Part shown: positions 1-32,218 of the stretch, piece by piece
Layout of the letters: the number at the start of each line of letters is the position of its first letter
Numbering within the stretch: the first letter of the stretch is position 1
NCBI GenBank assembly: GCA_964486455.1
Contig: CAZAMP010000018.1
Coordinates: 14,971 to 78,970 of the forward strand
Origin: an uncultured bacterium
Lineage (GTDB): Bacteria; Eisenbacteria; RBG-16-71-46; CAZAMP01
Direction of reading: 5' to 3'
DNA: 64,000 nucleotides
The notes under the pieces: model-generated
What the model was told of the DNA's origin: nothing
Seen by the model: only the letters and a program-made list of their open reading frames with translations
Databases searched by the model: none
Made by a program: the position numbers and the translations under genes

Positions 1-1
1 T

Positions 2-544
2 CTACGCAAGCTCTTAAACCGCGCACGCCGCTCGGGCGCATCGGTCGAACCCGACCCGGAGTTTCGCTACTTCGACGACTTCATGCGCATGCTGGAGTCG
101 ACGTTCGACAAGCACGGGGGCCGAACGCCGACCGCGCAGGCCATGGCGGCACGTCTGGAGGTCTTCCGGGAAAAGACGAAGCTCTTCGTTCTGAAGGTTG
201 ACGACACACCCGCGGGCGCGATCCTTTGCCACTATTCCCCGACGACCTGCTACCTCTCGAAGATGCCGTCGTCGCCTGACGGGCAGCGCGATCACCGGAC
301 GAAGCTTCTCTATCACGCGGCGCTCCAGGACGCGTGCGAGAACGGATACCGATTTGCGGAGTTCGGTACGACCTCGATCCCGTCTCTCGCGTACTGGAAA
401 GAACGGTTCAAGGCGACACGTGTGCCGATGCGTCAGTACGAGCGTGAATGCTCTACGGTTCGCGTCGCGATCGCGAAGGCGCCCTGGATCGCCCGGCGGC
501 TCAAGAAAGAGGTATCGCGCGTGACGGAACGGCTGAAGAAGTAG
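2..544 (+). CDS. FemAB/CelD-like (Acetyltransf_6-type) transferase, C-terminal fragment; 5' end lies outside the window
   Basis: Frame is open from the window edge and the first ATG is at 83. The C-terminal region (YRFAEFGTTS...YWKERFKA) resembles the CelD/FemAB-family C-termini of the paralogs at 1743, 11448 and 15931. Confidence 0.55.
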   Translation, partial: LRKLLNRARRSGASVEPDPEFRYFDDFMRMLESTFDKHGGRTPTAQAMAARLEVFREKTKLFVLKVDDTPAGAILCHYSPTTCYLSKMPSSPDGQRDHRTKLLYHAALQDACENGYRFAEFGTTSIPSLAYWKERFKATRVPMRQYERECSTVRVAIAKAPWIARRLKKEVSRVTERLKK

Positions 545-589
545 TCGCTCTCGCTCCGCCGCTCTGCTCCCGCGTCCGCGCCCGCGCGC

Positions 590-1702
590 CTATCTTCGGA
601 AGCGGCCCTTGAGCGCACCCCACCCCGTTCGCTCAATCGGCACCGACGTGTCGACGAGCCCCACGTACTCTTCATCGATCGCGTCGCGCGGCATGGCACC
701 GCACTCGGCAAGCACCGCGGCGAGCGCGGCGGCGGCCGCCATCTCGGTGACGGGCGGTGCGGGCCAGCGAGTCTCCGCCGTCGCGTCGATCTGAGTTTCC
801 GTTGGGATGATGTTCCCCTCCAGATAGACCTCGGTGCTCGACGTCAGGACGATCGCGAGACTCTCGTCGCTCCGTTCACCCGGCGCGTAGACGTTCTTGA
901 CGAGATTGCCCATCGCGTAGTGGCGAAAGCGGGTCCCGTAGCCGGGGTCGCCTCCCCAATCGTCAACGGGCGGGTCCCAATCGGCGACGACGTTGTTCAC
1001 GAGATCGACGACGCCACAGTCGTGAATCTGCGGGTTTCGTTCGTCGCCGAGGACCAGCAGGTTGTGGTGGATCGATATCCGCTCGCACACGCACTCAGGG
1101 CACTCGCCCTGGTAGTGCCGATAGACGTACATGTTCTTGTGGTTGTCGGCCAGCAGGCACCACTGCACGGTGATGTCGCGCGCATCCTCGATGATGTCGA
1201 TGTTCCCGTCGCCCGCCCGCCGGAACGAGCAGTGATCGATGACGATGTCATGGGCGCCCCGCCCGATCTGGAGATTGTCGTGTCCGCCGTCGAAGCGGAG
1301 ATGGTGCAGGACGAAGTCGTGTGCCGTGTCGGGAGCGGTTGAAACCAGCCGGATCAGATCGAACGCACCGGGCACCGGCGGGCTGATCGTGATCCCGGGG
1401 TCGGGAGCGGTCGAGCCGTCGATCGTGACGTGATGATTGGTCAAGCGGATGGGCGACTCGAGGACGATCGTCCCACTGACGGCGAACCGTATGTCCCGAT
1501 TGGACTCCGAAAGGGCGTCCCGGAGTGTGCCGGGACCGTCGTCCGCGAGGCTGTCGACCACATAGACTGTTCCGCCCGCCCCGCCCTCGGTGTCGGCGCC
1601 GAACCCCTCCAGCGGCCGCCCCCCCAGCGGATCGGCGAACGGGGCGCTGACCCCAACCACAAGCCACGCAAGCAGTAACGCGCTACAGGATTTTTCCCGC
1701 AC
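590..1702 (-). CDS. Secreted right-handed beta-helix protein, pectate-lyase (PL1)-like polysaccharide lyase or epimerase candidate
   Basis: N-terminal signal peptide (MREKSCSALLLAWLVVGVSA). Repetitive beta-helix rungs (NIDIIEDARDITVQWC, HHNLLVLGDERNPQ, VVDLVNNVV) resemble the PL1 catalytic region. Family assigned by motif recall only. Confidence 0.5.
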   Translation of the reverse strand: MREKSCSALLLAWLVVGVSAPFADPLGGRPLEGFGADTEGGAGGTVYVVDSLADDGPGTLRDALSESNRDIRFAVSGTIVLESPIRLTNHHVTIDGSTAPDPGITISPPVPGAFDLIRLVSTAPDTAHDFVLHHLRFDGGHDNLQIGRGAHDIVIDHCSFRRAGDGNIDIIEDARDITVQWCLLADNHKNMYVYRHYQGECPECVCERISIHHNLLVLGDERNPQIHDCGVVDLVNNVVADWDPPVDDWGGDPGYGTRFRHYAMGNLVKNVYAPGERSDESLAIVLTSSTEVYLEGNIIPTETQIDATAETRWPAPPVTEMAAAAALAAVLAECGAMPRDAIDEEYVGLVDTSVPIERTGWGALKGRFRR

Positions 1703-1742
1703 TTCCGATAACTCCTATTGATGGCGCCGGTTCACGCCGGCG

Positions 1743-2906
1743 ATGACCGTGCCGAAACGGGATCCGATCTCCTATCCGAGTATAGACCACAAGGACATCC
1801 AGGGCCTGACAATGACGCTTTCGACACGAGCCACAGCATCCGCCGCCGAGATCAACGGACAGTTTCACACGCAGGTCGAATGCTGGGAGCGGCTCACATC
1901 GCTTCGCCATCCCGGATTCTTCCACTCGTTCGAGTGGATGCGACTCTGGATGAAGCACTTCGCCCAGGACCGCGACGTCCGGCTCCACACGGTCGGTGAC
2001 GGGCAAGCCGTCCGGCTGATCGCGCCGCTCCGCACGCGAGCCGTCCGACAGGGCCCGACCTCCGTTCGTATCACGGAGACCATCGGCACCCGGCATTTGC
2101 CGAACAACGATCTCATCTACGATCCGGACGGGCTATCCGGCTGGATCGATGCCCTCATGCAGCATCTCGCGAGCGAATGCCGGACGGACATCCTCCGCAT
2201 CACGGCGCTTCCCGAAGAGTCACCGTTGACCGATCTTCTCCGGGATCGATCGAACGGCCTGAAGAAGGCGGTGGAGGTCGAGAACGACGCGTGCAGAAAC
2301 CGCCACGTGATGCTCGACGCGGACTTCGAAGCGTACTACGCGTCCCGACCGAAGAACCTGCGGCGCGATCAGCGCCAGGGACTCAAGCGGCTGGCGAAGG
2401 AAGGGAGTGTCTCGACGCGCTTCTACCGCTCGATCGCCGAGTCGCCTACCGCTCTTGACGACTACTTCGAACTCTACTCGCGGAGCTGGCAGCAGTCCGA
2501 GCACTGGAAGGACTTCTTCAGCGAGGCGATCGCGCTACTCTCTTCGCTGGAAAAGCTGCGGCTTCTCTTCCTGGATCTGGATGGACGCGCCGTCGCCGGG
2601 CAGCTCGCGCTGGTCGACAACGGCACGCTCTACGTGCTCAAGAACTTCTACGACGAGAGCTACAAGAGGTTCTCCCCCGGCACGATCCTCGGCTTCGACA
2701 TGTTCGCCCGGACGATGCGGAACGACCAGGTCGGTTCCATCGACTACATGAAGGGCGACCAGCCGTACAAGGCGAGATGGGCCGAGAGCGTTCGCGTTCG
2801 CAGCGATTGGGCGATCCCGCTCACCTTTCGTGGATCGCTCGCGCTCAACATCAAGAACCTCGTCTCGGGGAACTCCGGCAACGGATCGAAGAACGGGGAC
2901 GAGTGA
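1743..2906 (+). CDS. CelD/FemAB-like GNAT-fold transferase (Acetyltransf_6-type)
   Basis: Motifs FEWMRLWMKHF and DYMKGDQPYKARWA are typical of the cellulose-biosynthesis CelD / BioF2-like family. An alternative start is at 1812. Confidence 0.7.
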   Translation: MTVPKRDPISYPSIDHKDIQGLTMTLSTRATASAAEINGQFHTQVECWERLTSLRHPGFFHSFEWMRLWMKHFAQDRDVRLHTVGDGQAVRLIAPLRTRAVRQGPTSVRITETIGTRHLPNNDLIYDPDGLSGWIDALMQHLASECRTDILRITALPEESPLTDLLRDRSNGLKKAVEVENDACRNRHVMLDADFEAYYASRPKNLRRDQRQGLKRLAKEGSVSTRFYRSIAESPTALDDYFELYSRSWQQSEHWKDFFSEAIALLSSLEKLRLLFLDLDGRAVAGQLALVDNGTLYVLKNFYDESYKRFSPGTILGFDMFARTMRNDQVGSIDYMKGDQPYKARWAESVRVRSDWAIPLTFRGSLALNIKNLVSGNSGNGSKNGDE

Positions 2907-2979: not shown

Positions 2980-4428
2980 ATGAGGCTCGCGCAAACGGCC
3001 ACGTGGCTCGCGATCGGCCGGAGTATCAACGCCGCGTCGTCACTCATCCTGCCGATCGTCCTCGTTCGGATTCTCACTCAGGACGACTTCGGGTTCTTCA
3101 AGCAGGTCACTCTGGCGGCCACGCTGCTCGTGCCGTTCCTGCCGCTGGGTCTCGACCGGAGCGTGACGTATTTCGTTCCGCGAAAGGGCAGTCGGCCCGC
3201 GGAAGAGATCTCGACCGCCATCCTAGCCGCGCTGGTGCCGTCCGCGCTGGTTACCGCGGCGGCGCTCCTGTTTCCGTCCACGTTCGCGACGCTGTTCGGT
3301 TGCTCCGGGGCTCTCTACATTGTCGGCGCGACCGTCGCCTCGGCGGTGTCGACGGTCTTCTTCGAGCTCGCCAACCGATCGTTGATCGCCGTCGGCGCCG
3401 CTCGGACCGCCGCGCTTCTACCCGCCGCGGTCGGCGTGCCGCGGGCGATCGGGCTGGTCGCAGTCGCGCTCGTGGCCCGGTCGCTGTCGGCAATCTGCCT
3501 CGCGATCATCGGCTTCGCGCTGCTCTACGTCGTGGTGGGTATGTTCGCGCTCGTCCGGCGTGGCTACCTTCGCCCGGCGCTCGATCTGAAAGTCTTGGCC
3601 CGACAGTTACGCTACGGCGGAATGCTGGCGGTGATCACCGTCGTTCAGATCTGGTCCGTTCGCATCGATCGGTTTCTCGTATCCGTCGGACTCAGCCCCG
3701 CGCTGTTCGCGATCTACTCCGTCGGAAAGACACAGATCCCGTTCGTCAGGATCATTCCGGGCTCGCTCGGGTCGGCGACCGCGCCGCGCTACTCGAAGCT
3801 CGAATCGGAAGGCCGTCACCAGGACATGGCGGTCCTCTGGCGAAAGAGCGCCGAAGCACTGCTCCCGCTCTACTTCCTCATCGTCACGTTCCTCGCGGCC
3901 ACCGCGCACTGGACGGTCCCAATCGTCTTCACGGCCGACTACGCGGATGCCATCCCCATCTTTCGCGTCTTCGTGGTGACATACATCTTTCACGCGCTCG
4001 TCGGTATCGAACCGATTCTCCGAGCGCTCGCGGCCCTTCGCTTTCTTTTCATCACCGTGATGATCTCGTTGCCGGTTCGAATCGGACTCGGACTGGCGGC
4101 GCTCGAGATGGGCTCACTCTGGTTTCTGGCCGGCACGCAGATCATCGTCAACACCGTTCTGTTTGCCATTCGTCTCCTCTACATTCGCCGCCGCCTGGAC
4201 GTGACGTGGTCGACGCTGGTGCCGCACCACGGGCTGATCCTCCCGGCGCTGGCCTCCGCGGTCGGGTTGCTCATGACCTGGGGGATCCACGCGTGGCGCG
4301 GGGAAGAACCGATAACGGCGCTCATCGTGTCGGGCGTGGGATGGTGCGTGCTGACGGTCGTGGTTCTCTGGCGTCAGGGCCTCTGGAGACAGATCCTCTC
4401 GAGAAAGCGGGAAAGCCGATCGGCCTGA
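2980..4428 (+). CDS. Wzx-like polysaccharide flippase (MOP/PST family multi-TM protein)
   Basis: 482 aa, about 12-14 hydrophobic helices, N-terminal region typical of polysaccharide biosynthesis protein family. The overlapping +590 aa frame (3003..4775) is a GC-rich shadow ORF. Confidence 0.7.
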   Translation: MRLAQTATWLAIGRSINAASSLILPIVLVRILTQDDFGFFKQVTLAATLLVPFLPLGLDRSVTYFVPRKGSRPAEEISTAILAALVPSALVTAAALLFPSTFATLFGCSGALYIVGATVASAVSTVFFELANRSLIAVGAARTAALLPAAVGVPRAIGLVAVALVARSLSAICLAIIGFALLYVVVGMFALVRRGYLRPALDLKVLARQLRYGGMLAVITVVQIWSVRIDRFLVSVGLSPALFAIYSVGKTQIPFVRIIPGSLGSATAPRYSKLESEGRHQDMAVLWRKSAEALLPLYFLIVTFLAATAHWTVPIVFTADYADAIPIFRVFVVTYIFHALVGIEPILRALAALRFLFITVMISLPVRIGLGLAALEMGSLWFLAGTQIIVNTVLFAIRLLYIRRRLDVTWSTLVPHHGLILPALASAVGLLMTWGIHAWRGEEPITALIVSGVGWCVLTVVVLWRQGLWRQILSRKRESRSA

Positions 4429-5693
4429 TGCGTTCGATCGTAGAACGCCAATCGGTCTCGCGGCGGACCCGGAAGCTCATCCCCACGGTTCCACGCTTCG
4501 TAGAGCAGTTCCAGCTGCCGCGCGATCTCTTCCTCGTCATTAGGATGGGCGATCCAGCAGCCGCCGACCCGGCGGGCGAGTCTCGTCGTCGTGCCGTCCG
4601 GGCAGAGCAACAGGACCGGCCGCCCCACGGCGAGCACTTCGTAGAACTTGCCCGGCGTGTGACGGTTGGGTCCGCCCAGATCCCCCTCGAGCACGAGGTT
4701 CGCGCCGGCGTCCCGAAGGTGTCGCAGAACTTCGGCGTGGGGCGCGTAGCCGTGAAGCTCCACGACGCGGGATAGGCGACTCCCGGGCGCAATGACCGAC
4801 CTGACGCCGGCAACACTACCGAAGAACCGCACACGAAATCGATCGCCGTCGATCGTACCGGCTTCGAGCAGACCATCAATGGCGCGAAAGAGGGCGCGCG
4901 GATCTCGCCACGCGAAGAGCCCTCCCGCATAGGTCAACGTGAAGCGGTCGGTGGCCGGCTCGGCTTCGGGCTCGGCGGGCGGCGGGATGTCGTCCGGGTC
5001 GTAACCGTTCGGAACCCAAAAGCGGTCGCGGCCCCGCATCGCGGCGCGGTGGGCGGTGACGATCGCCGCGGCATGGGAAAGCACGCCGCGCTCCAGACGC
5101 GACGCGATCCGGCGGCGGATTCCGGAGAGCCCGAGCGCCGCGGGAACGGTGTCGGGTGGAAAGTCCGGATAGAGCCGATGCGTCCACGGATCGCGATAGT
5201 CGAGGACGAGTGGGATGCCGAGGCGGCGGCTCAAGAACTTCGCGACTAGCATCGGGCTCCACGGCGGGCCCGAGACGAGAATGACGTCCGGACGAAAACG
5301 GCGGGCGAGACGAAGACCGGCGAACGCGGCGAACGGAAACCAGCCCGCCTGAGGATCGGGAAGGCTAAGCGCGTCGAGCCCGATCATGATGACGTGGAGG
5401 AAGCGATCGAGGATGCGCCACACGCCGCCTGAGGGAATGCGCCGTCGGAGTCGCGCGACCAGGAGCCATGGGCTCGGGTCGGGCACGTGCACGCACGGCA
5501 CGCCGGAGGAGATCTCGTCAACTAAGCCGTCGTCCGTCCGCCAGATCCCCGCGGTCGGCCCCGCGAGCACGGCCACGGGCACACCGCGTCTTCCCCAGAG
5601 CTTGGCGAACTTCGCGGAGCGCTGGACACCTCCCCCGCCCTGCGGGGGGAAACGGTATGCGATGAGCATGATACGTGGGGCCATCCGACGCAT
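4374..5693 (-). CDS. GT4-like glycosyltransferase
   Basis: Internal start MRRMAPRIMLIAYRFPPQGGGGVQRS chosen within the 821-aa ORF 4374..6839. The upstream part of that ORF is antisense to the + strand GT4 gene. C-terminal GT-B Rossmann region is present. Confidence 0.6.
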   Translation of the reverse strand: MRRMAPRIMLIAYRFPPQGGGGVQRSAKFAKLWGRRGVPVAVLAGPTAGIWRTDDGLVDEISSGVPCVHVPDPSPWLLVARLRRRIPSGGVWRILDRFLHVIMIGLDALSLPDPQAGWFPFAAFAGLRLARRFRPDVILVSGPPWSPMLVAKFLSRRLGIPLVLDYRDPWTHRLYPDFPPDTVPAALGLSGIRRRIASRLERGVLSHAAAIVTAHRAAMRGRDRFWVPNGYDPDDIPPPAEPEAEPATDRFTLTYAGGLFAWRDPRALFRAIDGLLEAGTIDGDRFRVRFFGSVAGVRSVIAPGSRLSRVVELHGYAPHAEVLRHLRDAGANLVLEGDLGGPNRHTPGKFYEVLAVGRPVLLLCPDGTTTRLARRVGGCWIAHPNDEEEIARQLELLYEAWNRGDELPGPPRDRLAFYDRTHQADRLSRFLERICLQRP

Positions 5694-5780
5694 CGTGGCC
5701 CCTTTGCTCGGATGACGCAAGTACCCGAGCCATCGAGATGCGCCTTGACGGCGCCGGAGCGCATGATGACACTGGCCGCC

Positions 5781-6941
5781 ATGCGTAAGAAACGACTCGA
5801 ACGACTTCGGATCGGATTCGTGCTCGGCGAGCTCGGGATCGGCGGCGCCGAGCGGCAGCTCCTGAAGAAAATCGCCATACTGCAAGACCAAGGCGTGGAC
5901 TGCTTCGTGGTCACGCTTTCGAGCGGCGGCGATCTGACTCAGGCCTTCGCCGCGGAGAAGATCCGGCTTCACGAGATCCCTCGCGGGCACTCGCTCGAGG
6001 TCAGCCGGATGTGGAATCTCATCGGCATCCTGCTCCGCGAGCGACCCACCATCGTTCACGGGGAACTGTACGACGCGGGCGCCTACGCGCGTATCGCCTC
6101 GATGATGGCGGGCGTTCCGATTCGGATCCAGGCGATCCGGTCGACCTACCCGCGCCTCAATCCGAAGTACCGCCTTGCGGAGGAGATTCTCAAGTGGTTC
6201 ACCGACGCCTACATCGTGAACGCCGCCGCGATCAAGCGACGCACGATAGAGCTCCATCGTGTGAATTCGAAAAAGGTGCACGTCGTCTACAACCTCTACG
6301 ACGCCACCGAAGCGCCGCGCTGCACACCGGATGAGATGCGCCGCGAGCTGGGGCTCGTGCCCGGCCGCAAAGTCATCGGTCTCCTCGGCTCGTTCTCCCC
6401 CGAGAAGAACCACGAGCTGTTCTTGCGGTTCGCCCGCGCGCTTATCGATCGCGGAACGGACGCGGAGTTCATGCTCATCGGGGACGGCAAGCTCAGGCCG
6501 AAGATCGAGGCGCAGATTGCGCAGCTCGACCTCGGGTCGCGCGTGCGTCTCCTCGGACTTCGGAGGGACGTGCCCGATCTGCTTCAGGTCCTCGACATCT
6601 CGGTGAACTGCTCGTTTCGCGAAGGGCTCAACAACGCCATCCTGGAATCGCTGGCACTGGGCATCCCCGTTCTGGGGAGCCACGTCGGCGGCACACCCGA
6701 GCTGGTCGAGACGGGGGTGAACGGCGAGACGTTCGAGTCGGACTCGCTCGACGACATGATCGCCAAGGCAGAGATGATGATCCCGCGGATCGAGGAGTAC
6801 CGCGCCCGGATCCGCGAGAACCGCGGAGACTTTCTGCAACGGTTTCAGGCGGACGAGGTCACCCGCCAGACCCTGGACATCTACCTTAAGTGCTTGTCAA
6901 ATCGAGGGTTCGAGCTGGAGAGCCCACCCCACGCCCACTGA
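5781..6941 (+). CDS. GT4 glycosyltransferase (GT-B fold)
   Basis: RIGFVLGELGIGGAERQ N-terminal motif and EGLNNAILESLALGIPVLGSHVGGTPELV C-terminal motif (E-x7-E region). Start trimmed to the ATG at 5781; alternatives are 5712 and 5763. Confidence 0.75.
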   Translation: MRKKRLERLRIGFVLGELGIGGAERQLLKKIAILQDQGVDCFVVTLSSGGDLTQAFAAEKIRLHEIPRGHSLEVSRMWNLIGILLRERPTIVHGELYDAGAYARIASMMAGVPIRIQAIRSTYPRLNPKYRLAEEILKWFTDAYIVNAAAIKRRTIELHRVNSKKVHVVYNLYDATEAPRCTPDEMRRELGLVPGRKVIGLLGSFSPEKNHELFLRFARALIDRGTDAEFMLIGDGKLRPKIEAQIAQLDLGSRVRLLGLRRDVPDLLQVLDISVNCSFREGLNNAILESLALGIPVLGSHVGGTPELVETGVNGETFESDSLDDMIAKAEMMIPRIEEYRARIRENRGDFLQRFQADEVTRQTLDIYLKCLSNRGFELESPPHAH

Positions 6942-7091
6942 CCGGCAGAGCCACGGCAGCTTCGCTTCATGCTCCCCTCTTCTGTCTTGCCCCTGTCCCT
7001 GGAGGCCACGAATTTATCCGATAACAAAGACAGCGTACAGTGATCACACTGAAACCAACGATCCTCACACCATGACAGGCCGACCGGAGTA

Positions 7092-7301
7092 GTGAGCAAA
7101 ATGTATCCGATCGCAGAACTCCTCGGCATCGCGGGAGCAATCCTCGGTCTGGTTTGCACCTTCGCCATCTGGCGAAAGGTGCGCTACGAGAGACAGCATC
7201 TCGAAAGCTCTGACCTTGCCGGGAAGCGGCTAGTCAAGCCCGCTGGATTTGAGGATCTCAAGAATGCCCTGGACGCCACCGAAGATCGATGGCGACGGTG
7301 A
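7092..7301 (+). CDS. Small hypothetical membrane protein (one TM)
   Basis: 69-aa ORF in a lower-GC island with a single hydrophobic helix, followed by two hairpins. Weak support only. Confidence 0.25.
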   Translation: MSKMYPIAELLGIAGAILGLVCTFAIWRKVRYERQHLESSDLAGKRLVKPAGFEDLKNALDATEDRWRR

Positions 7302-10326: not shown

Positions 10327-10335
10327 GGCCGGATC

Positions 10336-20633: not shown

Positions 20634-20636
20634 AGG

Positions 20637-22583: not shown

Positions 22584-22676
22584 GAGCGCGTCCTTTCGGC
22601 ATACTTATCCACCTCTACCATCGTCCTGTTCATGCCCGTTCTTGACATCGTCCACGGAGACAGGCATTACGGTGTC

Positions 22677-23882: not shown

Positions 23883-26278
23883 AGCCGAAGTCCACCGCCC
23901 ATCTCGCGTTCTTCCCGGTGCTCCTCCTTGCGCTCCTTGCGTCCGCCGCCTTCGCTGGTCCTTCACAGGCGGCGCCGTCGCTGGACGATCTCCCACCCCA
24001 CCCGCGCCTCTTCCTGACTCAACCTGAGCTTGCGGCGCTGCGCGCGGATTGCCTGGGCGGTTCCAAGCGAGACCTCTACGGCATGATCCGGCGCTACGCC
24101 GAGCGAAAGCTCCCCAGGAAAGGCCCGACGGACAACCCCGTCCAGGTGTCCGTCTTCGCCTTCGTCTACCTCATCGAAGAGGACATGCGCTTCGGCAAAG
24201 AGGCCGTCCTGGGACTCATGCGCGTAGTTCGGCAGAAGAAGTGGTACGCGAAGCAGGAAGGCTACCAGTTCATGCCGATGGTCTACGACCACATCTACCC
24301 ACTTCTCACGCGCGCTCAGATCGATTCGGTGATCAGAGTGGCGCGGCTCAGGGTCAAGCCCGGACACTACGCGAAGTCGCCCTACTACAACCTCGAGGCG
24401 AACGCCGCGGCGAGCTGCGTCGTCAACGGCATCACGTTCTTCGGCGACGGAGACGCGTCATCGGACCGCCACTTCCGGGAGACGTTCGTCAACGGCTTCA
24501 ACAGATTGGCCGGCGAGGGAACGCATCACCCCGACACCGGAAGCGCCGAGCTTCGCGGCGGCGTGCTCCGCACGCGCCTCCACTACGCGCGCGACGGTGG
24601 CTACCACAAGGACCGCGCATACACGTGCAAGGATCTCGCGAGCCTGGTTCACTTCGCCGAGGCGATGCGCGCTCTGGGACTCTTCGACGCGTACGCGTTC
24701 GCGCGTGACTACTACGTCAACGTCGTCGACTACCTGCTCTGGATCACACGGCCCGACGGCACCGGGCTTCGCCAAACCACGGGACAGGGGCACCGGAGGC
24801 TCACGCCGCGCGGCTACGAGGCGCTCGCCGGGATCGGGCGTCAGTTCCGCCTGGGCAAAACCGCGTGGATGATCGATAACCGGTTGCTCGGAGACGGCGT
24901 CCCGCCCGCCTACGAGGCGGTTCTCTTCTGCATCCTCTGGGATCCGATGCTCGCTCCGGAGCCCCCCACGGTCGAGTCGATGGGAACGAGCAAAGCATTC
25001 AACGGCGGCGCGGCGCGATACGTCTATCGATCGGGATGGGACGTATCACCCGAGAGCCGGGACTTCGTCTTTCACATCGATGCGTCCGACTACATGGGTG
25101 ACAACGTCTACTGGACCGTCGGCGGGTTCGAGATCTTCTATCGCGGCGCGCTTGCCATCAAGTCCGGCAACTACGCCGCGTTCGACGATCACTACGGCCA
25201 CTACAACACGGCGACCATCTCCGCGAACTGCGTGATCGTCCGTGACGACGGGCAGAAGGAGATCCGAGATCGCAGCGGGCAGGACAACATCAGAAAGAGC
25301 ATCGGGCGGCCGGAGAAGCTCGGCGACGTTGCCGAGGGGAGTGTGCTCGATCGCGCGCGGATCGACTCCGTACGCACTCGCGTCGCGGGCGGACGCGAGT
25401 GGAGCCTGGTCTCGGTCACGCTTCGGCCGAAAGCGATCTACGTCAAGACAAAGAAGGCGGAAAGCTGGATCCGGCGCGTGCTCGTCACCGACGGCATCGC
25501 GGTGATCTACGATCGCGTGAAGGCCCGCGACGCGGACTTCCCGATCAGCTGGCTTCTGCACACCGTCGAGGAACCGGTCGTGAGCGGAGCGATATCGGAC
25601 GTGGACGTGCCGGGGCATATCAGCTGGCACGCGGGAGACACGTTTCATGTCACGCGCTCGATGCCGATCGAAAGCTCACCGAACGGAGGGAACCTTCACG
25701 GGACGAGGCTTCTGCCGCGGCATGCGCGGACACGCAAGGTGGGAGGCGACGGCTATTCGTTCTGGGTGGACAGCGCGCACCCCGTTCCCGGCGCTCAGCC
25801 GATGGGGCGGAACTTCGAAATCGGGCGGCCGGAAGTACGCTACAGCCGGCGCGAGGCGGGCGCCTGGCGGCTCGAGATCCACCCCATCGAGCCCGGGCCG
25901 GCGCAGGAGTTCCTCGTCGCGCTGCAGGCGAGCGACGAGGAGTATGGCGATACCTTCCAGCTCGTGCTGGACGCGGAAACCGCCGGCTTCGTGCACGACG
26001 GCGTGATGCTCGGGTTCTCGCGTACCGACCCTCCGCCGGAAAGACCTTCTTATCGACTGCACGGCGACGCGGAGCTGATCCTGCTGTTCGATTTGGCGCC
26101 GAGGACGGCGTACCGCATGGAGATCATCGACGAGAGCGACTCGACGGGGATGATGGTGAAGGGTCTCGCGAATCTGATGGAGCTACGAAGCGATGACCGG
26201 GGATGCGCAGTCGGCGAGATTCAGTTGCCGGCTGGAACTCGGTTCCGGCTGGATCCGCTCAAGGACGCTCTGCCGTAA
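23879..26278 (+). CDS. Secreted heparinase II/III-like family protein (second copy)
   Basis: Signal peptide (LAFFPVLLLALLASAAFAGPSQA). Central region SDYMGDNVYWTVGGFEIFYRGALAIKSGNY...DDHYGHYNTATISANCVIV resembles the heparinase II/III C-domain motif. 4-nt overlap with the upstream GT4. Confidence 0.6.
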   Translation: MKPKSTAHLAFFPVLLLALLASAAFAGPSQAAPSLDDLPPHPRLFLTQPELAALRADCLGGSKRDLYGMIRRYAERKLPRKGPTDNPVQVSVFAFVYLIEEDMRFGKEAVLGLMRVVRQKKWYAKQEGYQFMPMVYDHIYPLLTRAQIDSVIRVARLRVKPGHYAKSPYYNLEANAAASCVVNGITFFGDGDASSDRHFRETFVNGFNRLAGEGTHHPDTGSAELRGGVLRTRLHYARDGGYHKDRAYTCKDLASLVHFAEAMRALGLFDAYAFARDYYVNVVDYLLWITRPDGTGLRQTTGQGHRRLTPRGYEALAGIGRQFRLGKTAWMIDNRLLGDGVPPAYEAVLFCILWDPMLAPEPPTVESMGTSKAFNGGAARYVYRSGWDVSPESRDFVFHIDASDYMGDNVYWTVGGFEIFYRGALAIKSGNYAAFDDHYGHYNTATISANCVIVRDDGQKEIRDRSGQDNIRKSIGRPEKLGDVAEGSVLDRARIDSVRTRVAGGREWSLVSVTLRPKAIYVKTKKAESWIRRVLVTDGIAVIYDRVKARDADFPISWLLHTVEEPVVSGAISDVDVPGHISWHAGDTFHVTRSMPIESSPNGGNLHGTRLLPRHARTRKVGGDGYSFWVDSAHPVPGAQPMGRNFEIGRPEVRYSRREAGAWRLEIHPIEPGPAQEFLVALQASDEEYGDTFQLVLDAETAGFVHDGVMLGFSRTDPPPERPSYRLHGDAELILLFDLAPRTAYRMEIIDESDSTGMMVKGLANLMELRSDDRGCAVGEIQLPAGTRFRLDPLKDALP

Positions 26279-28259
26279 GGCCGGCGTCTTCCCAAGTGAA
26301 ACGGTAGATGCTCGTCGCTCCGTCGGGCGATACGAAATCGGCGGGACGATCGGACAGCAGCGACTGAAGCGACGGGTCCATCTTCTCGCTTTCACTCTTG
26401 AGGTGAGATCCCTTGGCAAACACCCAGACCACCGGCCACTTCTCGCAGTATGCCAGGAAATCGTCCAGCGTCGGGATCAACTCGGCGCTCAGGTAGATAT
26501 CTCGGATCGTGCCGAGCGAATCCACGTAGGCCTGACGGCCCCACCCCCGCCAACGTGTCCATGCATCGACCCGCTCCAGATAAGCGTAGGTCATGAGCCA
26601 GTCCGTCGCCACAACCCTATCACCGGGTTCCAACCGCGGCCGCAGCCATTCCACGGCGCTCTCGATGTCCCACGCCACCCGCGTGCCGGGGGTCCACCAG
26701 TCCTCACCGGTCTCACGAGTCACGTAGGCCGTCGACTTCTGCAGAACCCCACCCATGAGAAACGCGATAGCGGCGAGCGCGGTCACGGCGATCGGCATGG
26801 GCGCGGTCCGAGGCCCGCCCCGCGAAACGAGCTGGTTGAGCCAGTCGAGACCCCGCACGACCGACCAGCCGGCGAGAAGCCCCCAAAGCGGCCAGATCTC
26901 GACGAGAAACCGGGCCTGCGTCTTCCACGTGAGAAGCCCGCGGGTCAAGAGCAGGAGGATCACCGCCAGTAGAAGAAAGCGCTCTCCAAACGTTGCGTTC
27001 CCCCGCCAGGCGCGAACGGTGATCGCCACCGCACCCGCGCAGGCCGCGATGCCGACCGGCAGCGCATCGAGGAGGTAGCTGAGGTAGCGTGCCGGCCAAC
27101 GCAGGATGATCTCGACGGAATCACGGAGTCCACAACCCATGGACTTGGCGGCGACAACCCAGACGATCCCCGCGATCATGACGGTGACGAGCCCGATCGC
27201 AAGCGCCCGTGATCCCGTCGGGCCCGGAAAGAGTTCGTCCTTGTGAAGAATCAGGATCACCATGGCGGCGACGGCCACGCCCACTTGATGCACTCCGGCG
27301 GCCGCGAGTGCGAACGCGAGGCCGAGCATGCCGAGAAGTCGAGTGAGCCACGGCCGCCCGCGGGTCGCCGAGATGGCCACGACGGCGAACACAACGGCGA
27401 AGACGACGCCCAGCGCGTAAGGGCCGATGTCCCCGATCAGCATCGTCGACAGCGCCCACGGATCCTGGGAGAGCGTATCCTGAATCGGCTGAGAGGCGAC
27501 CTTCTCGGCAATGTCGGGAACCGGTTCCACCGCATTCTCATGGCCGCCCATGAACGCGCTCCGGTTCCAGGCCTGGTGCCACTTGGCGACGGCGATCAAC
27601 ACCGTCGCCGACACCAATACGGAAAGGCGCATGCGCCATGATGACCACCGAACGAGTACCGGGATGAAAAGCACGCATAATGTCCCGCCTAGCTGGTGCG
27701 CCCCCATCGACAGTAGGACCAATGCAGAGGCTATCCAGAGATCGCGGTGCTTCCCCGATTCCCAGAGCCGATACACCGCGAACATCGCCAACATCGCGAG
27801 AAGTGAGTAGAGCGAGTACATGCGGACGTATCGCCCAAGCATGACCTCTTCCCACACAACGGCGAAGATCACCGCGCCCGCGACAGCGCTCCACGCTCCA
27901 ACCCATGGCCGACCGAGTCGGAGCACCGCCACCCCACCGAGCACCGAGAAAAAGATCGACACGAGACGCGGCAGCCAGTCCGTATGCGTGGCCGCGAGCG
28001 GCGCGATCACATAGTGATAGAGCGGGGCCCGGAGGTAGAGATGACCGGAGGGGAGCTGGGGCTCTCCGGTCTCGGCGATCCCACGCGCGACGATCGTGCT
28101 GATATCCTCGTCACCGTGAAGTCCCTGCCGATCCAGGAAAGGCAGACGGAAGAGCAGCATCAGGAGGATCACCGCCAGGAGGATCCCCCATCCCATTCGC
28201 GTGGTTGGAGCGGTCACACTGCTCATTCGGCTTCCTTGTTCACCCGCCGGACCTGCCAA
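26259..28259 (-). CDS. GT-C family glycosyltransferase (ArnT/PMT-like, polyprenyl-phosphate-sugar dependent) with C-terminal periplasmic domain
   Basis: 666 aa with more than 10 TM helices. First periplasmic loop LHGDEDISTIVARGIAETG carries the DE/DD motif of GT39/GT83. Overlaps the upstream CE4 gene by 20 nt. Confidence 0.6.
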   Translation of the reverse strand: MAGPAGEQGSRMSSVTAPTTRMGWGILLAVILLMLLFRLPFLDRQGLHGDEDISTIVARGIAETGEPQLPSGHLYLRAPLYHYVIAPLAATHTDWLPRLVSIFFSVLGGVAVLRLGRPWVGAWSAVAGAVIFAVVWEEVMLGRYVRMYSLYSLLAMLAMFAVYRLWESGKHRDLWIASALVLLSMGAHQLGGTLCVLFIPVLVRWSSWRMRLSVLVSATVLIAVAKWHQAWNRSAFMGGHENAVEPVPDIAEKVASQPIQDTLSQDPWALSTMLIGDIGPYALGVVFAVVFAVVAISATRGRPWLTRLLGMLGLAFALAAAGVHQVGVAVAAMVILILHKDELFPGPTGSRALAIGLVTVMIAGIVWVVAAKSMGCGLRDSVEIILRWPARYLSYLLDALPVGIAACAGAVAITVRAWRGNATFGERFLLLAVILLLLTRGLLTWKTQARFLVEIWPLWGLLAGWSVVRGLDWLNQLVSRGGPRTAPMPIAVTALAAIAFLMGGVLQKSTAYVTRETGEDWWTPGTRVAWDIESAVEWLRPRLEPGDRVVATDWLMTYAYLERVDAWTRWRGWGRQAYVDSLGTIRDIYLSAELIPTLDDFLAYCEKWPVVWVFAKGSHLKSESEKMDPSLQSLLSDRPADFVSPDGATSIYRFTWEDAGLTAERP

Positions 28260-29280
28260 ACCTCAAGTTTCGTAACAGCAGGACGTCAAAAACCCCCAGC
28301 AACTCCGCTTCGAAGAGCGTCCAGGAGAAGTCCCTTCCCGTCAGTGAGTACTTCGGCTCACTGACCCCGATTCTTGGGATTCGAAATGGATCCGAGCGCA
28401 ATGAATAGTAGCCTTTCTCCGTCGTGAAAGCGTAAGTGAATCCGGCGCCTCGGACCCGATCCACGATTCGATCGTCGTGGCTCCCATTGGGATAGGCGAA
28501 GAGCTCGAGCCCACTCCCCAGTCGCTCGGACAGATCGTTTCGGCATCCGTCGATCTCGCCTTCCAGCTCGGCACCGGTGCAGTGGGTCAGAATGGCGTGG
28601 GCGCGGCCGTGACCGGCGAATTCCGCCCCTTCGCCGAGCATGGCGCGGGCCTGGTCGAACGTCATGGCCTGGGGAACCTCGTGAGGGTCGATCCGCGCCG
28701 CCGCCGTGACGATCAGCTCCCGTACCTCATCGCGAAGCGCGGAGTACGGCAGCCCCTTCAGCCGAGCGATGGCCGACTCCGCCGCATGCCCGTACGTGGC
28801 CTCCCCTACGCCACTGACCGGATAGGCCGAGCCACCTTCCGGGCGGTGAGTGGCGGCCACGATCTCCCACCAGAGCGGGGAGATCCCGGCGACGAATTCC
28901 GTGGTGAGGCAAAATATGGCCGTGGCGCCGACCTCACGAAGAATGGGCCAGGCGTTGACGGCATTGTCGAGATAGCCATCGTCGAACGTGATGGCCATAT
29001 GCGGGCGGGGGTCGCCGCGCCGGGCGGCCGACACGCAATCCTCCCACGGGGCGACTCGGTATCGCCGGGTGACCTCCGCGACCAGCTTCGCGAATAGCTC
29101 GGTCGGCACGCCCATCGGAACGCGGGCGTCCGGATCGCCGTCGACCCGATGCAGCCAGAGAACGGGAATCTGCCCTCGCCGCGCGCGATGACGCCTGAGC
29201 CAGCGCAATATGCCGGTGGCACGGAGAACGGCGGCAATGATCCATTTGACCAGCTGCACCGCTCTCTGGAAGCTTCCCAT
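28240..29280 (-). CDS. Polysaccharide deacetylase (CE4 / NodB domain)
   Basis: ITFDDGYLDNAVNAWPILREVGATAIFCL and FAYPNGSHDDRIV motifs. Confidence 0.7.
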   Translation of the reverse strand: MGSFQRAVQLVKWIIAAVLRATGILRWLRRHRARRGQIPVLWLHRVDGDPDARVPMGVPTELFAKLVAEVTRRYRVAPWEDCVSAARRGDPRPHMAITFDDGYLDNAVNAWPILREVGATAIFCLTTEFVAGISPLWWEIVAATHRPEGGSAYPVSGVGEATYGHAAESAIARLKGLPYSALRDEVRELIVTAAARIDPHEVPQAMTFDQARAMLGEGAEFAGHGRAHAILTHCTGAELEGEIDGCRNDLSERLGSGLELFAYPNGSHDDRIVDRVRGAGFTYAFTTEKGYYSLRSDPFRIPRIGVSEPKYSLTGRDFSWTLFEAELLGVFDVLLLRNLRFGRSGG

Positions 29281-29521
29281 CAGATCTCCTGCTCTGCGCG
29301 GGTCCCCCGCAGATACTCCCGTATGGCCGAGTTCTTAGCAGAACGCGGTCCAATAGGAAAGCCCGGGGGCCCAGGCTCGGCTCTCGGGCCACGAAAGCGC
29401 GATTCCCCGCCTCCTTCCCGCTTGTCGGCCCCTGGAAACGCAAGTAGACTTTCCCGGCCTTTCTACAGACAGGATCGGGTGCCGGAGGCCCCGTGGGGAC
29501 AGCAATCGGAGGTGTGGTGAT

Positions 29522-30497
29522 GTCGAAGAGGGAGATGAGAAACATCCTGGTGACGGGTGCCGTCGGCCAGATCGGATCGGAGCTGACGCTGGCACTCCGG
29601 GAACGCTATGGCTCGGAAAATGTTGTGGCGACTGGGAGAAAGACGGATCCCACCCCCGATCTCCGCGACTCCGGACCGTTCTACTTCATCGACGTGACGC
29701 AGCGCGCTTCGCTCGACGTCGTGATCAAGAAGCACAACATCGACACGATCTACCACATGGCGGCCGTCCTCTCCGCGACCGGCGAAAAGAACCCACCGCT
29801 CTGCTGGGACGTGAACATGAACGGCACGCTCAATGTGCTGGAAGCGGCGCGCGATTACGAGATGGCGCGCGTGATCATGCCGTCGTCGATCGCCGTCTTC
29901 GGACCGCTCTCGCCCCGCGACAACACGCCGCAAGACACGATCCTCTGTCCCTCCACGATGTACGGCGTGACGAAGGTCGCGGGCGAAGTGCTCTGCAACT
30001 ACTACGTGCAGCGATTCGGCGTGGATATCCGCGGGCTTCGCTACCCGGGCATTATCTCGAGCGAAACACTGCCGGGCGGCGGAACGACCGACTACGCGGT
30101 GGCCATCTACTACGACGCGGTCAAGCACAACAAATACACCTGCTTCGTTCGCGAAGACACGGTGCTCCCGATGATGTACATGCCCGACTGCATCAAGGCG
30201 ACGATCGATCTCGCCGAGGCGGAGTTCGACACGCTCAAGCACCATGCTGATTTCAACGTCGGCGCGTTCAGCTTCTCCGTGGGCGAACTCGCCGCGAGCA
30301 TCGCGAAGTATATGCCTGGCTTCACGTGTACCTACGAGCCGGACTTCCGGCAGGCGATCGCGGATTCGTGGCCGAGGTCTCTGGATGACAGCGCCGCCCG
30401 CGAGGAGTGGGGTTGGAAGCCGGGCTACGACCTCGATGCGATGACGAAGGATATGCTGGAGAAGCTCAAGGCGAGGCACGAGAAGGGCGAGCTGTAG
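29522..30497 (+). CDS. NAD-dependent epimerase/dehydratase-family SDR, L-threonine 3-dehydrogenase-like
   Basis: ILVTGAVGQIGSEL Rossmann motif and YGVTK (YxxxK) catalytic motif, with overall collinearity to short-type TDH. Start trimmed to MSKREMRN (the ORF is called from 29493). Confidence 0.7.
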
Positions 30498-30594
30498 GCA
30501 ACCTGCGCCGGAACGCGAGCCGCGCGGACGGCCGAACCACACCGGCCGCCCCGCCGCTTCCGGCGGAGCCGAACCCCATAGGGCCTCTCGTACG

Positions 30595-31356
30595 ATGAAG
30601 CAGAAGCTGATCATCGTTCCCGCGTACAACGAGGCCGCCAACATCGTTGGCGTAATCGCCGATCTGCGTGAGCACTGTCCGGGTTTCGACATCGTCGTGA
30701 TCAACGACCACTCCACGGACGGCACGGCCGCAGCCGCGTTGGCGGCCGGCGTGGAGCTTCTCGACCTCCCGGTCAATCTCGGGATCGGCGGCGCTGTTCA
30801 GACCGGCTTCCGCTACGCCTGGCGGCACGGCTACGACCTCGTCGTTCGTGTGGACGGCGACGGCCAACATCGCGCTGATCAGATCCCGTCGCTCATCGCG
30901 CCTATCCTCAACGGCAACGCCGATTGCGTTAACGGCTCGCGCTTTCTGAACCGGGACGGACGCGCCGACTGGCCACGCGCGCGACGGGCGGGGACGATGG
31001 TCTTCTCCGTTCTGAGCAAGCTGCTGCTCAGGAAACGGATCACCGACGCCACTTCCGGGTTTCGCGCGTACTCCCGCCGTGTCATCAGACACCTGGCTGA
31101 GCACTATCCCGAGGACTATCCCGAACCGGAGATCGTGAATCGGCTCGTGCAGCTCGGCATGCGGCTCGAGGAAGTGCCGGTCACGATGCGCAAGCGTGGC
31201 GGCGGAACGTCGTCGATCACGTTCCTCAAATCGATCTACTACATGGTCAAGGTCGTGATGGCCGTCCTGATCAATACGCCGGTCTTTCCGTCGCGGAAGA
31301 GATCGCCGGGGACGCCAGAAAGCTCCCCCGGAACATCCACGAGGAGCGAACCGTGA
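30595..31356 (+). CDS. GT2 glycosyltransferase, polyprenyl-phosphate sugar synthase-like (DPM1/ArnC/GtrB-type)
   Basis: LIIVPAYNEAANI and VVINDHSTDGT motifs, plus VDGDGQH (DxD region). Confidence 0.75.
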   Translation: MKQKLIIVPAYNEAANIVGVIADLREHCPGFDIVVINDHSTDGTAAAALAAGVELLDLPVNLGIGGAVQTGFRYAWRHGYDLVVRVDGDGQHRADQIPSLIAPILNGNADCVNGSRFLNRDGRADWPRARRAGTMVFSVLSKLLLRKRITDATSGFRAYSRRVIRHLAEHYPEDYPEPEIVNRLVQLGMRLEEVPVTMRKRGGGTSSITFLKSIYYMVKVVMAVLINTPVFPSRKRSPGTPESSPGTSTRSEP

Positions 31357-31769
31357 CGCGATTCCAGATCATCGCGTTCTTCGCCGGATTAGCCTTTCTT
31401 CTCGTGATCGTGCAGCTGATCCGCCGGCATCATCTCAAGGAGAAGTACAGTCTGATCTGGTTTCTCGCGGCGCTTCTGTTGATCGTGTTCGCCGTGTGGA
31501 GAAGCCTGGTCGAGATACTCGCGAATCTCTTCGGCATCGACTACGCGCCTGCGGTGTTGTTGCTGTTGCTCGTCTTCATTGGGGCCGGGTTCTTCCTGGC
31601 GTTCTCGGTCATCGCGACGAAGCTCTCGAACCGGAGCCGGCGGCTCGCCCAGGAGGTCGCGTTGCTCAAGAATGAGCTGGCGGCGATGGAGGGTCGCGCC
31701 GGCGGCGCGAGCGACCGGCGGAACGACGAATCCGGCGGTGCAACGGACCAACCGGCAGATTCATCGTAG
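31353..31769 (+). CDS. DUF2304-like small membrane protein (GT2 partner)
   Basis: Three TM helices and translationally coupled (4-nt overlap) to the GT2. This family commonly accompanies GT2 polyprenyl-P-glycosyltransferases. Confidence 0.5.
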   Translation: MTRFQIIAFFAGLAFLLVIVQLIRRHHLKEKYSLIWFLAALLLIVFAVWRSLVEILANLFGIDYAPAVLLLLLVFIGAGFFLAFSVIATKLSNRSRRLAQEVALLKNELAAMEGRAGGASDRRNDESGGATDQPADSS

Positions 31770-31795
31770 CGCACCGCGCCCAAAGGAGGCTTCTC

Positions 31796-32218
31796 ATGCC
31801 GTCCGTCTTCACTCGAATCATCAACGGCGAGTTCCCCGGACGCTTCGTCTGGCGCGATGATCAGTGTGTCGCGTTTCTCACCATCAATCCGCTCAAGCCC
31901 GGGCACACGCTGGTCGTGCCGCGCGCCGAGGTCGATCATTGGATCGATATGGATGAGTCGCTCGTCTCCCACCTGAACCTCGTTGCGCTGAAGATCGGGA
32001 AGGCGATCGACAAGGTGTTTTCGCCGGCCAAGGTCGGCGTGATTCTCGCGGGACTCGAGGTGCCGCACGTTCACATCCACGTGTTGCCGATCTGGAGCGA
32101 GTCGGACCTCAACTTCGCGAACGCGGAGCGCGAACCCGACCCGGCGGCGCTGGACGACGCGGCGGAGAAGATCCGGGCGGAGCTGAAGGCGCTCGGTTTT
32201 CGGGAGGTTTCGGAGTAG
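31796..32218 (+). CDS. HIT family (histidine triad) protein
   Basis: HVHIHVLP histidine triad motif in a 140-aa protein. Confidence 0.8.
   Translation: MPSVFTRIINGEFPGRFVWRDDQCVAFLTINPLKPGHTLVVPRAEVDHWIDMDESLVSHLNLVALKIGKAIDKVFSPAKVGVILAGLEVPHVHIHVLPIWSESDLNFANAEREPDPAALDDAAEKIRAELKALGFREVSE

Follow-up and report, generated by a model that had tools for sequence, protein, structure and literature searches.

What does a bacterium make with five Fem-type transferases encoded in a single polysaccharide locus? The question is raised by a 64,000-nucleotide stretch of contig CAZAMP010000018.1 (positions 14,971 to 78,970; assembly GCA_964486455.1) from an uncultured bacterium of the Eisenbacteria, referred to below as the window. 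An initial annotation of this DNA, made from the letters alone, had placed at 1-31800 a polysaccharide locus with five FemAB/CelD-like genes, glycosyltransferases of family 4 (GT4), two deacetylases of carbohydrate esterase family 4 (CE4) and an AsnB-family protein. Our analysis classes it as an expanded, very divergent locus of the Vim/XrtA type, in which a glycan would be deacetylated and then aminoacylated, and nothing in it contradicts current understanding. By analogy with the characterized pathways, the evidence is evenly balanced on whether it is a modular island that would build a Wzx-flipped, undecaprenyl-linked heteroglycan whose amino sugars are de-N-acetylated and then re-acylated by the Fem-like enzymes, most likely with amino acids. 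That this is a glycan locus with Fem-type N-acylation is the surer part of the reading, better than even, and the identity of the donor and the product stands below even.

Five divergent Fem-like transferases

All five genes fall in the class first assigned to them. Each protein scores above the gathering cut-off of the Pfam family PF13480 (Acetyltransf_6; 22 bits), and a full-length Fem-like profile of our own, built from the five proteins and relatives, matched both GNAT lobes in every one of them and had no match elsewhere in the window (the other 45 kb); the clustering is not due to chance. AT6a (2-544, plus strand; PF13480 41.9 bits) is the C-terminal half of a FemX-like transferase of 354 amino acids whose gene starts outside the window. 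The full gene lies on metagenome contig L007 (11159-12223), downstream of two ATP-grasp genes, and its product scores 41.8 bits over the full length. AT6b (1743-2906, plus strand; 387 amino acids), also FemX-like, reaches 91.4 bits with PF13480 and 299 bits with our profile, across both lobes. AT6c (11448-12971, plus strand; 507 amino acids; 70.6 bits) and AT6d (15931-17469, plus strand; 512 amino acids; 47.3 bits) are long Fem-like transferases with three GNAT units, and AT6c has a conserved C-terminal domain. AT6e (17490-18569, minus strand; 359 amino acids; PF13480 33.0 bits) is the most FemABX-like of the set and the last gene of an operon that also encodes an AsnB-like protein, a CE4 deacetylase and a GT4. 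It alone exceeds the cut-off of PF02388 (FemAB; 40.5 bits against 24), a family to which the other four had no match at E <=0.01.

The five genes are not recent duplicates. AT6c and AT6d (44% identity over the full length of about 510 residues) are the sole clear paralogs. The remaining pairs can scarcely be aligned, leaving four divergent subfamilies among five genes. Against TIGR03019, the NCBIfam model for FemAB proteins of XrtA systems (cut-off 260 bits), full-length AT6a scored 47.6 bits, its best NCBIfam match, and AT6e 18.8, with no match for the other three.

Sequence features bear on the donor used by these enzymes. AT6e matched FmhB (PDB 6snr) with an E of 8.7e-6, its YNFGG...VWKFK aligning with YDFGG...LWAFK; the lysine of such a C-terminal FGG...[WF]K motif we take to be the catalytic lysine of FemX. 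All five proteins carry a C-terminal [DE][FY]xxG...xKxx[FWL] motif, in AT6a to AT6d with its xKxx[FWL] part at residues 306-343 and matched to FmhB by position only. A Q/RxxGxG/A motif, which binds the pyrophosphate of acyl-CoA, is absent from the catalytic lobe in all five. Signal peptides and convincing transmembrane segments are lacking throughout the set, as expected of enzymes taking cytoplasmic donors. When folds were ranked, FemX, FemA and FmhB were nearest to the tandem-GNAT fold of these proteins. The fold ranking and the missing CoA motif indirectly favour aminoacyl-tRNA as the putative donor.

The triple-GNAT form, a previously undescribed subfamily, is scarce. A word-limited search of 5.8 billion proteins gave 12 clusters at 90% identity, and 1.84 billion proteins held 63 representatives (E <=1e-30), with about 40 full-length matches. 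Among GTDB species representatives it occurs in seven loci, in metagenome-assembled genomes (MAGs) of Acidobacteriota and Actinomycetes and in a Nocardioides genome. Its C-terminal extension folds into a GNAT-like domain (about 130 residues), and the comparison with the c-di-GMP-binding tail of HfsK was dropped for that reason. Sequence searches of the PDB with the long family and with AT6b returned nothing useful. A third long paralog, 47% identical to AT6d, is found on other contigs (L012:10001-11548; also L013) in a non-glycan setting, its neighbours being a fructose-bisphosphate aldolase gene on one side and, on the other, the gene of a Ser/Thr kinase-TPR protein accompanied by an ECF sigma factor; the metagenomes that carry it include one also holding a contig identical to the window. 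Many database proteins fuse two or three PF13480-type units in one chain (P0088, P0096 and P0117, about 1,090 amino acids; P0083, P0089 and P0103, about 700), which suggests that Fem-like enzymes often work as multi-unit assemblies.

An operon with the enzyme classes of the Wbp/Vim pathway

On the minus strand at 17490-22583, one operon encodes the AsnB-like protein, the deacetylase CE4a, the glycosyltransferase GT4d and AT6e. GT4d (18566-19636, minus strand; Pfam 115 bits) is tightly coupled to AT6e, and its best NCBIfam match is the XrtA-system glycosyltransferase TIGR03088, at 151 bits against a cut-off of 409. CE4a (19638-20633, minus strand) scores 85.6 bits with PF01522 and carries TFDDG and HTCTH motifs; neither a signal peptide nor a transmembrane segment was found in it. 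Like CE4b, discussed below, it is PF01522-positive with TFDDG and HxxxH metal motifs, and both are thus NodB-type deacetylases, as first proposed.

The protein encoded at 20637-22583 (minus strand) had been read as an AsnB-family amidotransferase. It does belong to the AsnB superfamily, with an Asn_synthase match of 42 bits (residues 236-304 only) and an intact PP-loop, SGGLDS. When it is aligned with genuine AsnBs of related loci, SGGLDS is retained, MCG has become MIHLV and NGE is gone. Because the glutaminase cysteine and the NGE are lost, the protein is unable to hydrolyse glutamine in the usual manner, and the description as a glutamine amidotransferase has to be given up. It scored 50.4 bits with TIGR03108 (cut-off 817), and a PDB sequence search gave nothing useful.

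These four classes are those of WbpS, VimE, VimF and VimA of Porphyromonas gingivalis and Tannerella forsythia. In that pathway, VimA adds serine or glycine to a sugar from which the CE4 enzyme VimE has removed an acetyl group, and when VimA is exchanged between species, Ser gives way to Gly; the AsnB-like WbpS makes a uronamide, and transfer of the finished sugar is inferred to fall to the GT4 VimF (PMC7468200; PMC13086638). The new amine serves as the attachment point for type IX secretion system (T9SS) cargo (PMC7468200; PMC13086638). The predicted chemistry here is the same, de-N-acetylation followed by aminoacylation, and the host also encodes proteins with T9SS type A sorting domains. 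The differences are nonetheless considerable. The sequences are remote, with scores against TIGR03019 and TIGR03108 at 5-18% of the cut-offs, the AsnB-like protein has no glutaminase cysteine, five Fem-like genes stand where the Vim pathway has one, the genes are ordered differently, and the host lies outside the Bacteroidota. Nor do the window and its left flank encode the Wbp enzymes (UDP-GlcNAc dehydrogenase, oxidoreductase, aminotransferase and N-acetyltransferase), which may lie elsewhere, as they do in P. gingivalis.

Conserved neighbourhoods and copy number

Parts of the island recur in other genomes. A contig from a related MAG (L011) has, in the same order, GT4b, a lyase-like protein of 902 amino acids, GT4c, both long Fem-like genes, a FemAB-like gene, GT4d, CE4a and GT4e. 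Orthologs of GT4d (340-460 bits) lie directly upstream of AT6e orthologs in four other loci (L011, L022, L023 and L024). A CE4 gene, a GT4 gene and a Fem gene stand side by side in L011, L022 and L024, a DUF2334 gene adjoins the Fem gene in L023, and AsnB genes with glutaminase domains are found near the Fem gene in L022 and L023. The long Fem-like form stands beside CE4 genes and a second Fem-like gene in L014, L019 and L020, which belong to different phyla. A metagenome scan with the AT6e family returned two loci.

The load of FemAB/CelD-like genes had been called unusual, and in relative terms it is. Counted with our own profile in a sample of 14 loci, the five Fem-like genes of the window are the highest number. 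L011 and the Nocardioides genome follow with three each; three loci have two, and all others one. Related loci thus hold one to three such genes, and multiple copies are not unique to this locus.

Precedents in characterized systems

The view that the locus is without a characterized precedent was too strong, given the Vim pathway, the HfsH/HfsK proposal, and the XrtA/PEP-CTERM families together with the psc1 locus. According to the work on the Wbp/Vim pathway, VimA matches TIGR03019, and vimA-, vimE- and asnB-like genes cluster beside exosortases. The families of the XrtA/PEP-CTERM exopolysaccharide (EPS) loci comprise the deacetylase TIGR03006, the FemAB protein TIGR03019, the glycosyltransferase TIGR03088 and the amidotransferase TIGR03108, and they are the best or near-best NCBIfam matches for four proteins of the operon or their locus mates. 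The paper of Haft (2006) mentions the deacetylase and glycosyltransferase families and not FemAB or AsnB. In Rubrivivax gelatinosus, psc1 has adjacent CE4, FemAB and GT1 genes along with MBOATs, several AsnBs, many GT4s and a Wzx, and a single FemAB (PMC3684757). The comparison with PEP-CTERM/XrtA loci that had been suggested therefore yields the same enzyme classes and, in psc1, a similar gene set. It ends there: none of the NCBIfam scores reaches its cut-off, the DNA in view shows neither an exosortase nor a PEP-CTERM protein, nor Wzy, Wza or Wzc, and psc1 has one FemAB to the five here.

In Caulobacter crescentus, the FemX-like HfsK and two paralogs were proposed to acylate amines exposed by the CE4 deacetylase HfsH (PMC5362036). 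That system, whose substrate is the precursor of an adhesive polysaccharide, shares with the present one a FemX-like tandem-GNAT enzyme proposed to acylate amines after a CE4, the presence of several paralogs in a genome, and a C-terminal extension beyond the GNAT core, which in HfsK is important for function. The HfsK extension has 25 residues and binds c-di-GMP, unlike the folded GNAT-like domain of the long form, and the HfsK paralogs are dispersed whereas the Fem-like genes here are clustered. Staphylococcal FmhB, FemA and FemB and FemX of Weissella are only 9-13% identical to the proteins of the window, in which the coiled-coil arm of FemA is not seen; the context here is glycan assembly rather than peptidoglycan, and the acceptor is presumably a sugar amine and not a lysine side chain. 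Membership in the XrtA/PEP-CTERM, VimA-type, WbpS, DltB and PpgS equivalogs was considered and rejected, every NCBIfam score being far below its cut-off; the analogy was kept.

Extent of the locus

G+C content is even over the region, at 60-67% throughout the window, and genes were therefore chosen by frame-specific G+C at third codon positions. This map was cross-checked against gene calls on metagenome contigs carrying identical proteins, and the two agree with each other and with the initial map. Contig L007 matches the window with zero mismatches across 11,702 bases. Identical contigs extend the locus about 12.5 kb to the left of window position 1. The island is large and mosaic, at least about 44 kb; the span of 1-31800 given earlier holds for gene content and stopped short on the left, where the locus continues out of view. 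Genes lie on both strands, in at least 10 transcription units. Rfam and tRNA scans of the window gave no matches, indicating neither a riboswitch nor a tRNA-flanked island.

Outwards from the window, the left flank encodes the complete Fem-like protein of 354 amino acids, two divergent ATP-grasp proteins (389 and 399 amino acids), a DUF218 protein and a membrane-anchored alkaline-phosphatase-superfamily protein of the Phosphodiest family (608 amino acids). The last four lie at L007:12225-17164, some 0.5-5.5 kb to the left of window position 1, upstream of AT6a on the same strand. The ATP-grasp pair could be ligases coupling the carboxylates of this glycan to amino acids or amines. Further out are a sixth GT4, a GMC oxidoreductase, an LPG_synthase_TM protein and then a DUF4185/fn3 protein. 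The GMC oxidoreductase/LPG_synthase_TM pair at the far left (L007:17526-21113) is also found on other contigs (L025:11506-14712; L026). Proteins of Gemmatimonadota MAGs share 74% and 69% identity with this GMC oxidoreductase, the one taxonomic clue that the sequence comparisons gave, which suggested a host probably of that phylum. The pair is kept (74% identity) in CP070722.1, the complete chromosome of a Gemmatimonadota MAG, where it belongs to another glycan locus that also encodes a carbamoyltransferase, epimerases and a genuine AsnB.

Other genes for glycan assembly and processing

Pfam scans of the window bear out the five GT4s and the Wzx flippase that had been noted. The Wzx-type flippase (2980-4428, plus strand; 482 amino acids) has many hydrophobic segments and scores 51.7 bits with PF13440, above the cut-off. 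GT4a (4374-5669, minus strand; called at L007:6034-7329; 431 amino acids) matches Glyco_trans_4_4 at 41 bits, and GT4b (5712-6941, plus strand) matches Glyco_trans_1_4 at 92 bits and Glyco_transf_4 at 62 bits. GT4c (10336-11469, plus strand) was assigned by Pfam, as was GT4e (22575-23882, plus strand; 435 amino acids as called), a WcaI-like protein (101 bits with the WcaI family) encoded divergently from the AsnB-like gene. As called, the 5' ends of GT4e (start 22575) and of the AsnB-like gene (GTG start 22583, minus strand) overlap, so that either one start is miscalled or the two have a very compact common control region at 22575-22583. A 66-codon open reading frame at 7101-7301 (plus strand), in the 680-bp gap separating GT4b from the gene for the 902-residue lyase-like protein, encodes one hydrophobic helix; it is called on identical contigs and has no family match.

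The reported pair of an MBOAT and a DltD/AlgX-like protein is firm for its first member. The MBOAT O-acyltransferase (14253-15767, minus strand; called as 474 amino acids at 14253-15677) has a WHIS motif and scores 111 bits with PF03062, and 162 bits with the DltB model TIGR04091 (cut-off 375). Its membrane-anchored SGNH/DltD-like partner (13221-14216, minus strand) reaches 25.4 bits with GDSL_2, under the cut-off of 32.9, and had no sequence match in the PDB, though an N-terminal transmembrane anchor, GSS at residue 60 and DRSH (DxxH) at residue 294 are present. An MBOAT with a histidine motif beside a membrane-anchored GSS/DxxH protein recalls DltB/DltD, AlgI/AlgJ/AlgX and PatA/PatB. It differs from the Dlt system in the absence of DltA and DltC (the ligase and the carrier protein), in the two low scores and in the loss of the pair from L011.

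Three proteins are lyase-like, all with N-termini of an exported type. The first (590-1702, minus strand; 370 amino acids) is pectate-lyase-like (PL1/beta-helix), with an N-terminal hydrophobic segment, weak Pectate_lyase_4 and Beta_helix matches and, for its first 145 residues, an NCBIfam PelZ match of 64.9 bits that falls short of the cut-off. The second (7618-10326, plus strand; 902 amino acids) is heparinase II/III-like, has a signal-anchor-like N-terminus and weak HepB and HepII_C matches, and is kept in L011 at 1223 bits; it is a remote paralog of the third. That protein (23879-26278, plus strand; 799 amino acids), with a signal-like N-terminus, is heparinase II-like, matching heparinase II (PDB 2fuq) at E 3.6e-9, chiefly in the C-terminal beta-domain, and NCBIfam HepB at 63.9 bits. 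Since lyases of this kind target uronic-acid polymers, the three genes support the earlier guess of a uronic-acid-containing product.

A putative separate GT2/GT-C module

The GT2/GT-C module named in the initial annotation stands as regards the GT2, to which a DUF2304 protein can be added, and its GT-C is recognised just weakly. The GT2 (30595-31356, plus strand; PF00535 93 bits) is a polyprenyl-phosphate glycosyl synthase of the PpgS/AglJ/ArnC-like type, with 113.7 bits for PpgS (cut-off 370) and 93 bits for AglJ, both below the cut-offs. Its partner is a small DUF2304 membrane protein (31353-31769, plus strand) with 82.3 bits for PF10066, above the cut-off. The GT-C-type membrane glycosyltransferase (26259-28259, minus strand) scores 19.8 bits with PMT_2 and 23 bits with Agl23, both below the cut-offs, and has about 12-14 hydrophobic segments with an acidic GDED in the first loop after the first transmembrane segment. 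CE4b (28240-29280, minus strand; PF01522 63.1 bits), with TFDDG, HGRAH and FAYPNG motifs and 30% identity to CE4a, overlaps the start of the GT-C gene, which places the two in one operon. Between the divergent arms is an SDR epimerase/dehydratase-family protein (29493-30497, plus strand; PF01370 114.6 bits) that reached no NCBIfam equivalog; its membership in the pathway is uncertain.

The set resembles the mycobacterial PpgS/Rv3632/Rv3779 route in having a GT2 of the polyprenyl-phosphate synthase type, a small DUF2304 membrane partner (Rv3632 is presumably the DUF2304 protein there) and a putative GT-C, and differs from it in the low PpgS score and the faintly recognisable GT-C. Here the CE4 in the GT-C operon could provide the deacetylation step. 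The combination of GT2, CE4b and GT-C also resembles ArnC, ArnD and ArnT, the CE4b step paralleling deacetylation by ArnD. As CE4b shares an operon with the GT-C and is near the PpgS-like GT2 and DUF2304 genes, a role in a lipid-linked amino-sugar branch is more likely for it than one alongside the Fem-like enzymes. In mycobacteria, the PpgS route puts galactosamine on arabinogalactan, and the deacetylase has remained unidentified there (PMC9671496). CE4b is thus a candidate for the deacetylation step missing from amino-sugar decoration of the PpgS/GT-C type.

Genes downstream of the island

Directly downstream of the island are genes for a trypsin-like protease (32309-34147) and an S8 subtilase (36192-38396) with T9SS type A sorting domains, at 33.8 and 25.2 bits against the TIGR04183 cut-off of 23; both proteins also have FlgD_ig-like matches. 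The two domains imply a host with a type IX secretion system. Beyond them, 38517-44663 (minus strand) holds secreted-type genes for a VWA protein, a VIT and VWA protein of 796 amino acids and two right-handed beta-helix proteins. At 55538-58798 (minus strand), a P-type ATPase with an HMA_2 domain has as its neighbour a protein made up of HMA_2 by itself (137.7 bits); the two look like a usual pair for metal efflux, unrelated to the glycan genes.

A proposed pathway and its alternatives

From the gene content, folds, motifs and conserved neighbourhoods, a pathway can be proposed in which substrates, donor type, order of steps and product are all conditional. The six GT4s (one outside the window) would build an oligosaccharide at the cytoplasmic face on an undecaprenyl-phosphate carrier. 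Cytoplasmic CE4a would strip the N-acetyl group from an amino sugar, and FemX-fold transferases would re-acylate the freed amine or amines, most likely with amino acids from aminoacyl-tRNA, as VimE and VimA do on the linking sugar of Porphyromonas; the tightly coupled GT4d would transfer the modified sugar. The other four Fem-like enzymes, from three further subfamilies, may act on further amino sugars, or lengthen the first aminoacyl group one after another in the way of FmhB, FemA and FemB on lipid II. The glutaminase-dead AsnB-like protein and the two ATP-grasp ligases, all of carboxylate-activating types, could attach amide-linked substituents. After flipping by Wzx, the MBOAT/SGNH pair would O-acylate the unit, the separate module (PpgS-like GT2, DUF2304, CE4b and GT-C) may add an amino-sugar branch from a polyprenyl-phosphate donor, and the three exported lyase-like proteins may trim or process the product, implying a content of uronic acid. 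N-deacetylation followed by re-acylation or aminoacylation of a glycan that probably contains uronic acid, the chemistry predicted at the outset, fits all of the findings, and it is an already published model for a known class of cassette rather than a new one.

Several points weigh against this pathway. No enzyme reaches the curated cut-off of a characterized equivalog (TIGR03019, TIGR03108, DltB or PpgS), and the lyase assignments come from partial or weak matches. Neither Wzy, Wzz/Wzc (the chain-length regulator), Wza or another exporter, an exosortase nor an initiating phosphoglycosyltransferase was detected by Pfam and NCBIfam in the window and the 12.5-kb left flank (about 76 kb), so that the absences noted earlier hold for the window and for the added flank as well; the same DNA has no UDP-sugar dehydrogenase or Wbp genes, and no gene product in it matched a PEP-CTERM family in Pfam or NCBIfam. 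The donor is not decidable from fold similarity, and the best NCBIfam match of AT6b (43 bits) and of AT6c (28 bits) is the crotonyl transferase BspF. These matches suit an alternative on the model of HfsK, as does the former annotation of VimA as an acetyl-CoA transferase. Part or all of the Fem-like set would be N-acyltransferases dependent on acyl-CoA, placing short acyl groups other than amino acids on the amines exposed by CE4, and the glycan would be re-acylated without aminoacylation. The BspF scores are far under the cut-off of 775 bits, however, none of the five proteins has the CoA motif in its catalytic lobe, and swapping VimA alters the amino acid incorporated; we consider acyl-CoA donors a noteworthy but rather unlikely alternative. 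In L011 the AsnB-like gene is missing, as is the MBOAT/SGNH pair, which makes the island modular; its genes may serve more than one product. One could go further and regard the 32-kb region as independent modules standing side by side and acting on different envelope glycans, namely a cassette of the Vim/XrtA kind, a PpgS/GT-C module for decoration with amino sugars, an O-acylation pair and the lyases; the five Fem genes would reflect several pathways instead of a single hyper-modified polymer. L011 keeps the core alone (5712-12971, 15931-20633 and GT4e), the GMC/LPG_synthase_TM pair belongs to another glycan locus in the Gemmatimonadota chromosome, both strands and at least 10 transcription units are used, and a third long paralog occurs outside a glycan context. 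Yet there is a single flippase, genes for initiation and polymerisation are not duplicated, base composition is uniform, and three Fem-like genes, three GT4s, the gene for the 902-residue lyase-like protein and CE4a remain together in L011. Fully independent modules are therefore on balance doubtful, though they deserve serious weight.

Adjacency to T9SS cargo raises a different possibility, that the island or its Vim-like operon makes an anchor glycan, and not a free EPS, whose aminoacyl amine would take the cargo from a PorU-type sortase. The four shared enzyme classes and the two sorting domains above cut-off are consistent with it, and a Wzx without Wzy suits the proposal made for A-LS, in which one linker unit is attached to a second polymer (PMC13086638). 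T9SS cargo genes are usually numerous, so their adjacency may be a coincidence; the T9SS machinery, WaaL and the Wbp genes are not in view; relatives of the cassette occur in MAGs of Acidobacteriota and Actinomycetes and in a Nocardioides genome; and three lyase-like genes with an O-acylation pair are more typical of EPS loci. Such an anchor is unlikely. A more speculative and still less probable product is a ribosome-independent glycopeptide, in which the Fem-like, ATP-grasp and glutaminase-dead AsnB-like proteins would build short peptide branches on a surface glycan, the triple-GNAT enzymes extending the chain in the manner of FemA and FemB and its free alpha-amine taking T9SS cargo in a sortase-type reaction outside the Bacteroidota. 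That the Fem-like proteins instead make interpeptide bridges of peptidoglycan and are among glycan genes by chance is highly improbable. AT6e does match PF02388 and FmhB, and some homologs are named lipid II:glycine glycyltransferase by the Joint Genome Institute, but those names are automatic annotations, linkage of Fem genes to CE4 and GT4 genes is kept across phyla, and the scans of the window turned up neither mur nor pbp nor any further gene for peptidoglycan nearby. These readings are not all mutually exclusive, and more than one may hold for different parts of the island.

Significance for Fem-like enzymes in glycan loci

PF13480 genes are common in polysaccharide loci, and only for VimA is there genetic evidence for the group that is added; we found no literature report in which the donor was demonstrated biochemically for any glycan-modifying Fem-like member of the family. 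The present locus has four subfamilies next to the enzymes they likely work with (carboxylate ligases, CE4 deacetylases and a co-evolving GT4) and so offers a compact set of candidates. These bear on whether sugars are decorated from aminoacyl-tRNA outside peptidoglycan and outside the Bacteroidota, on whether Fem-like paralogs act sequentially, and on the role of the extra GNAT-like domain. If the link to T9SS is true, the linking-sugar model would reach other phyla of the Fibrobacterota-Chlorobiota-Bacteroidota (FCB) group.

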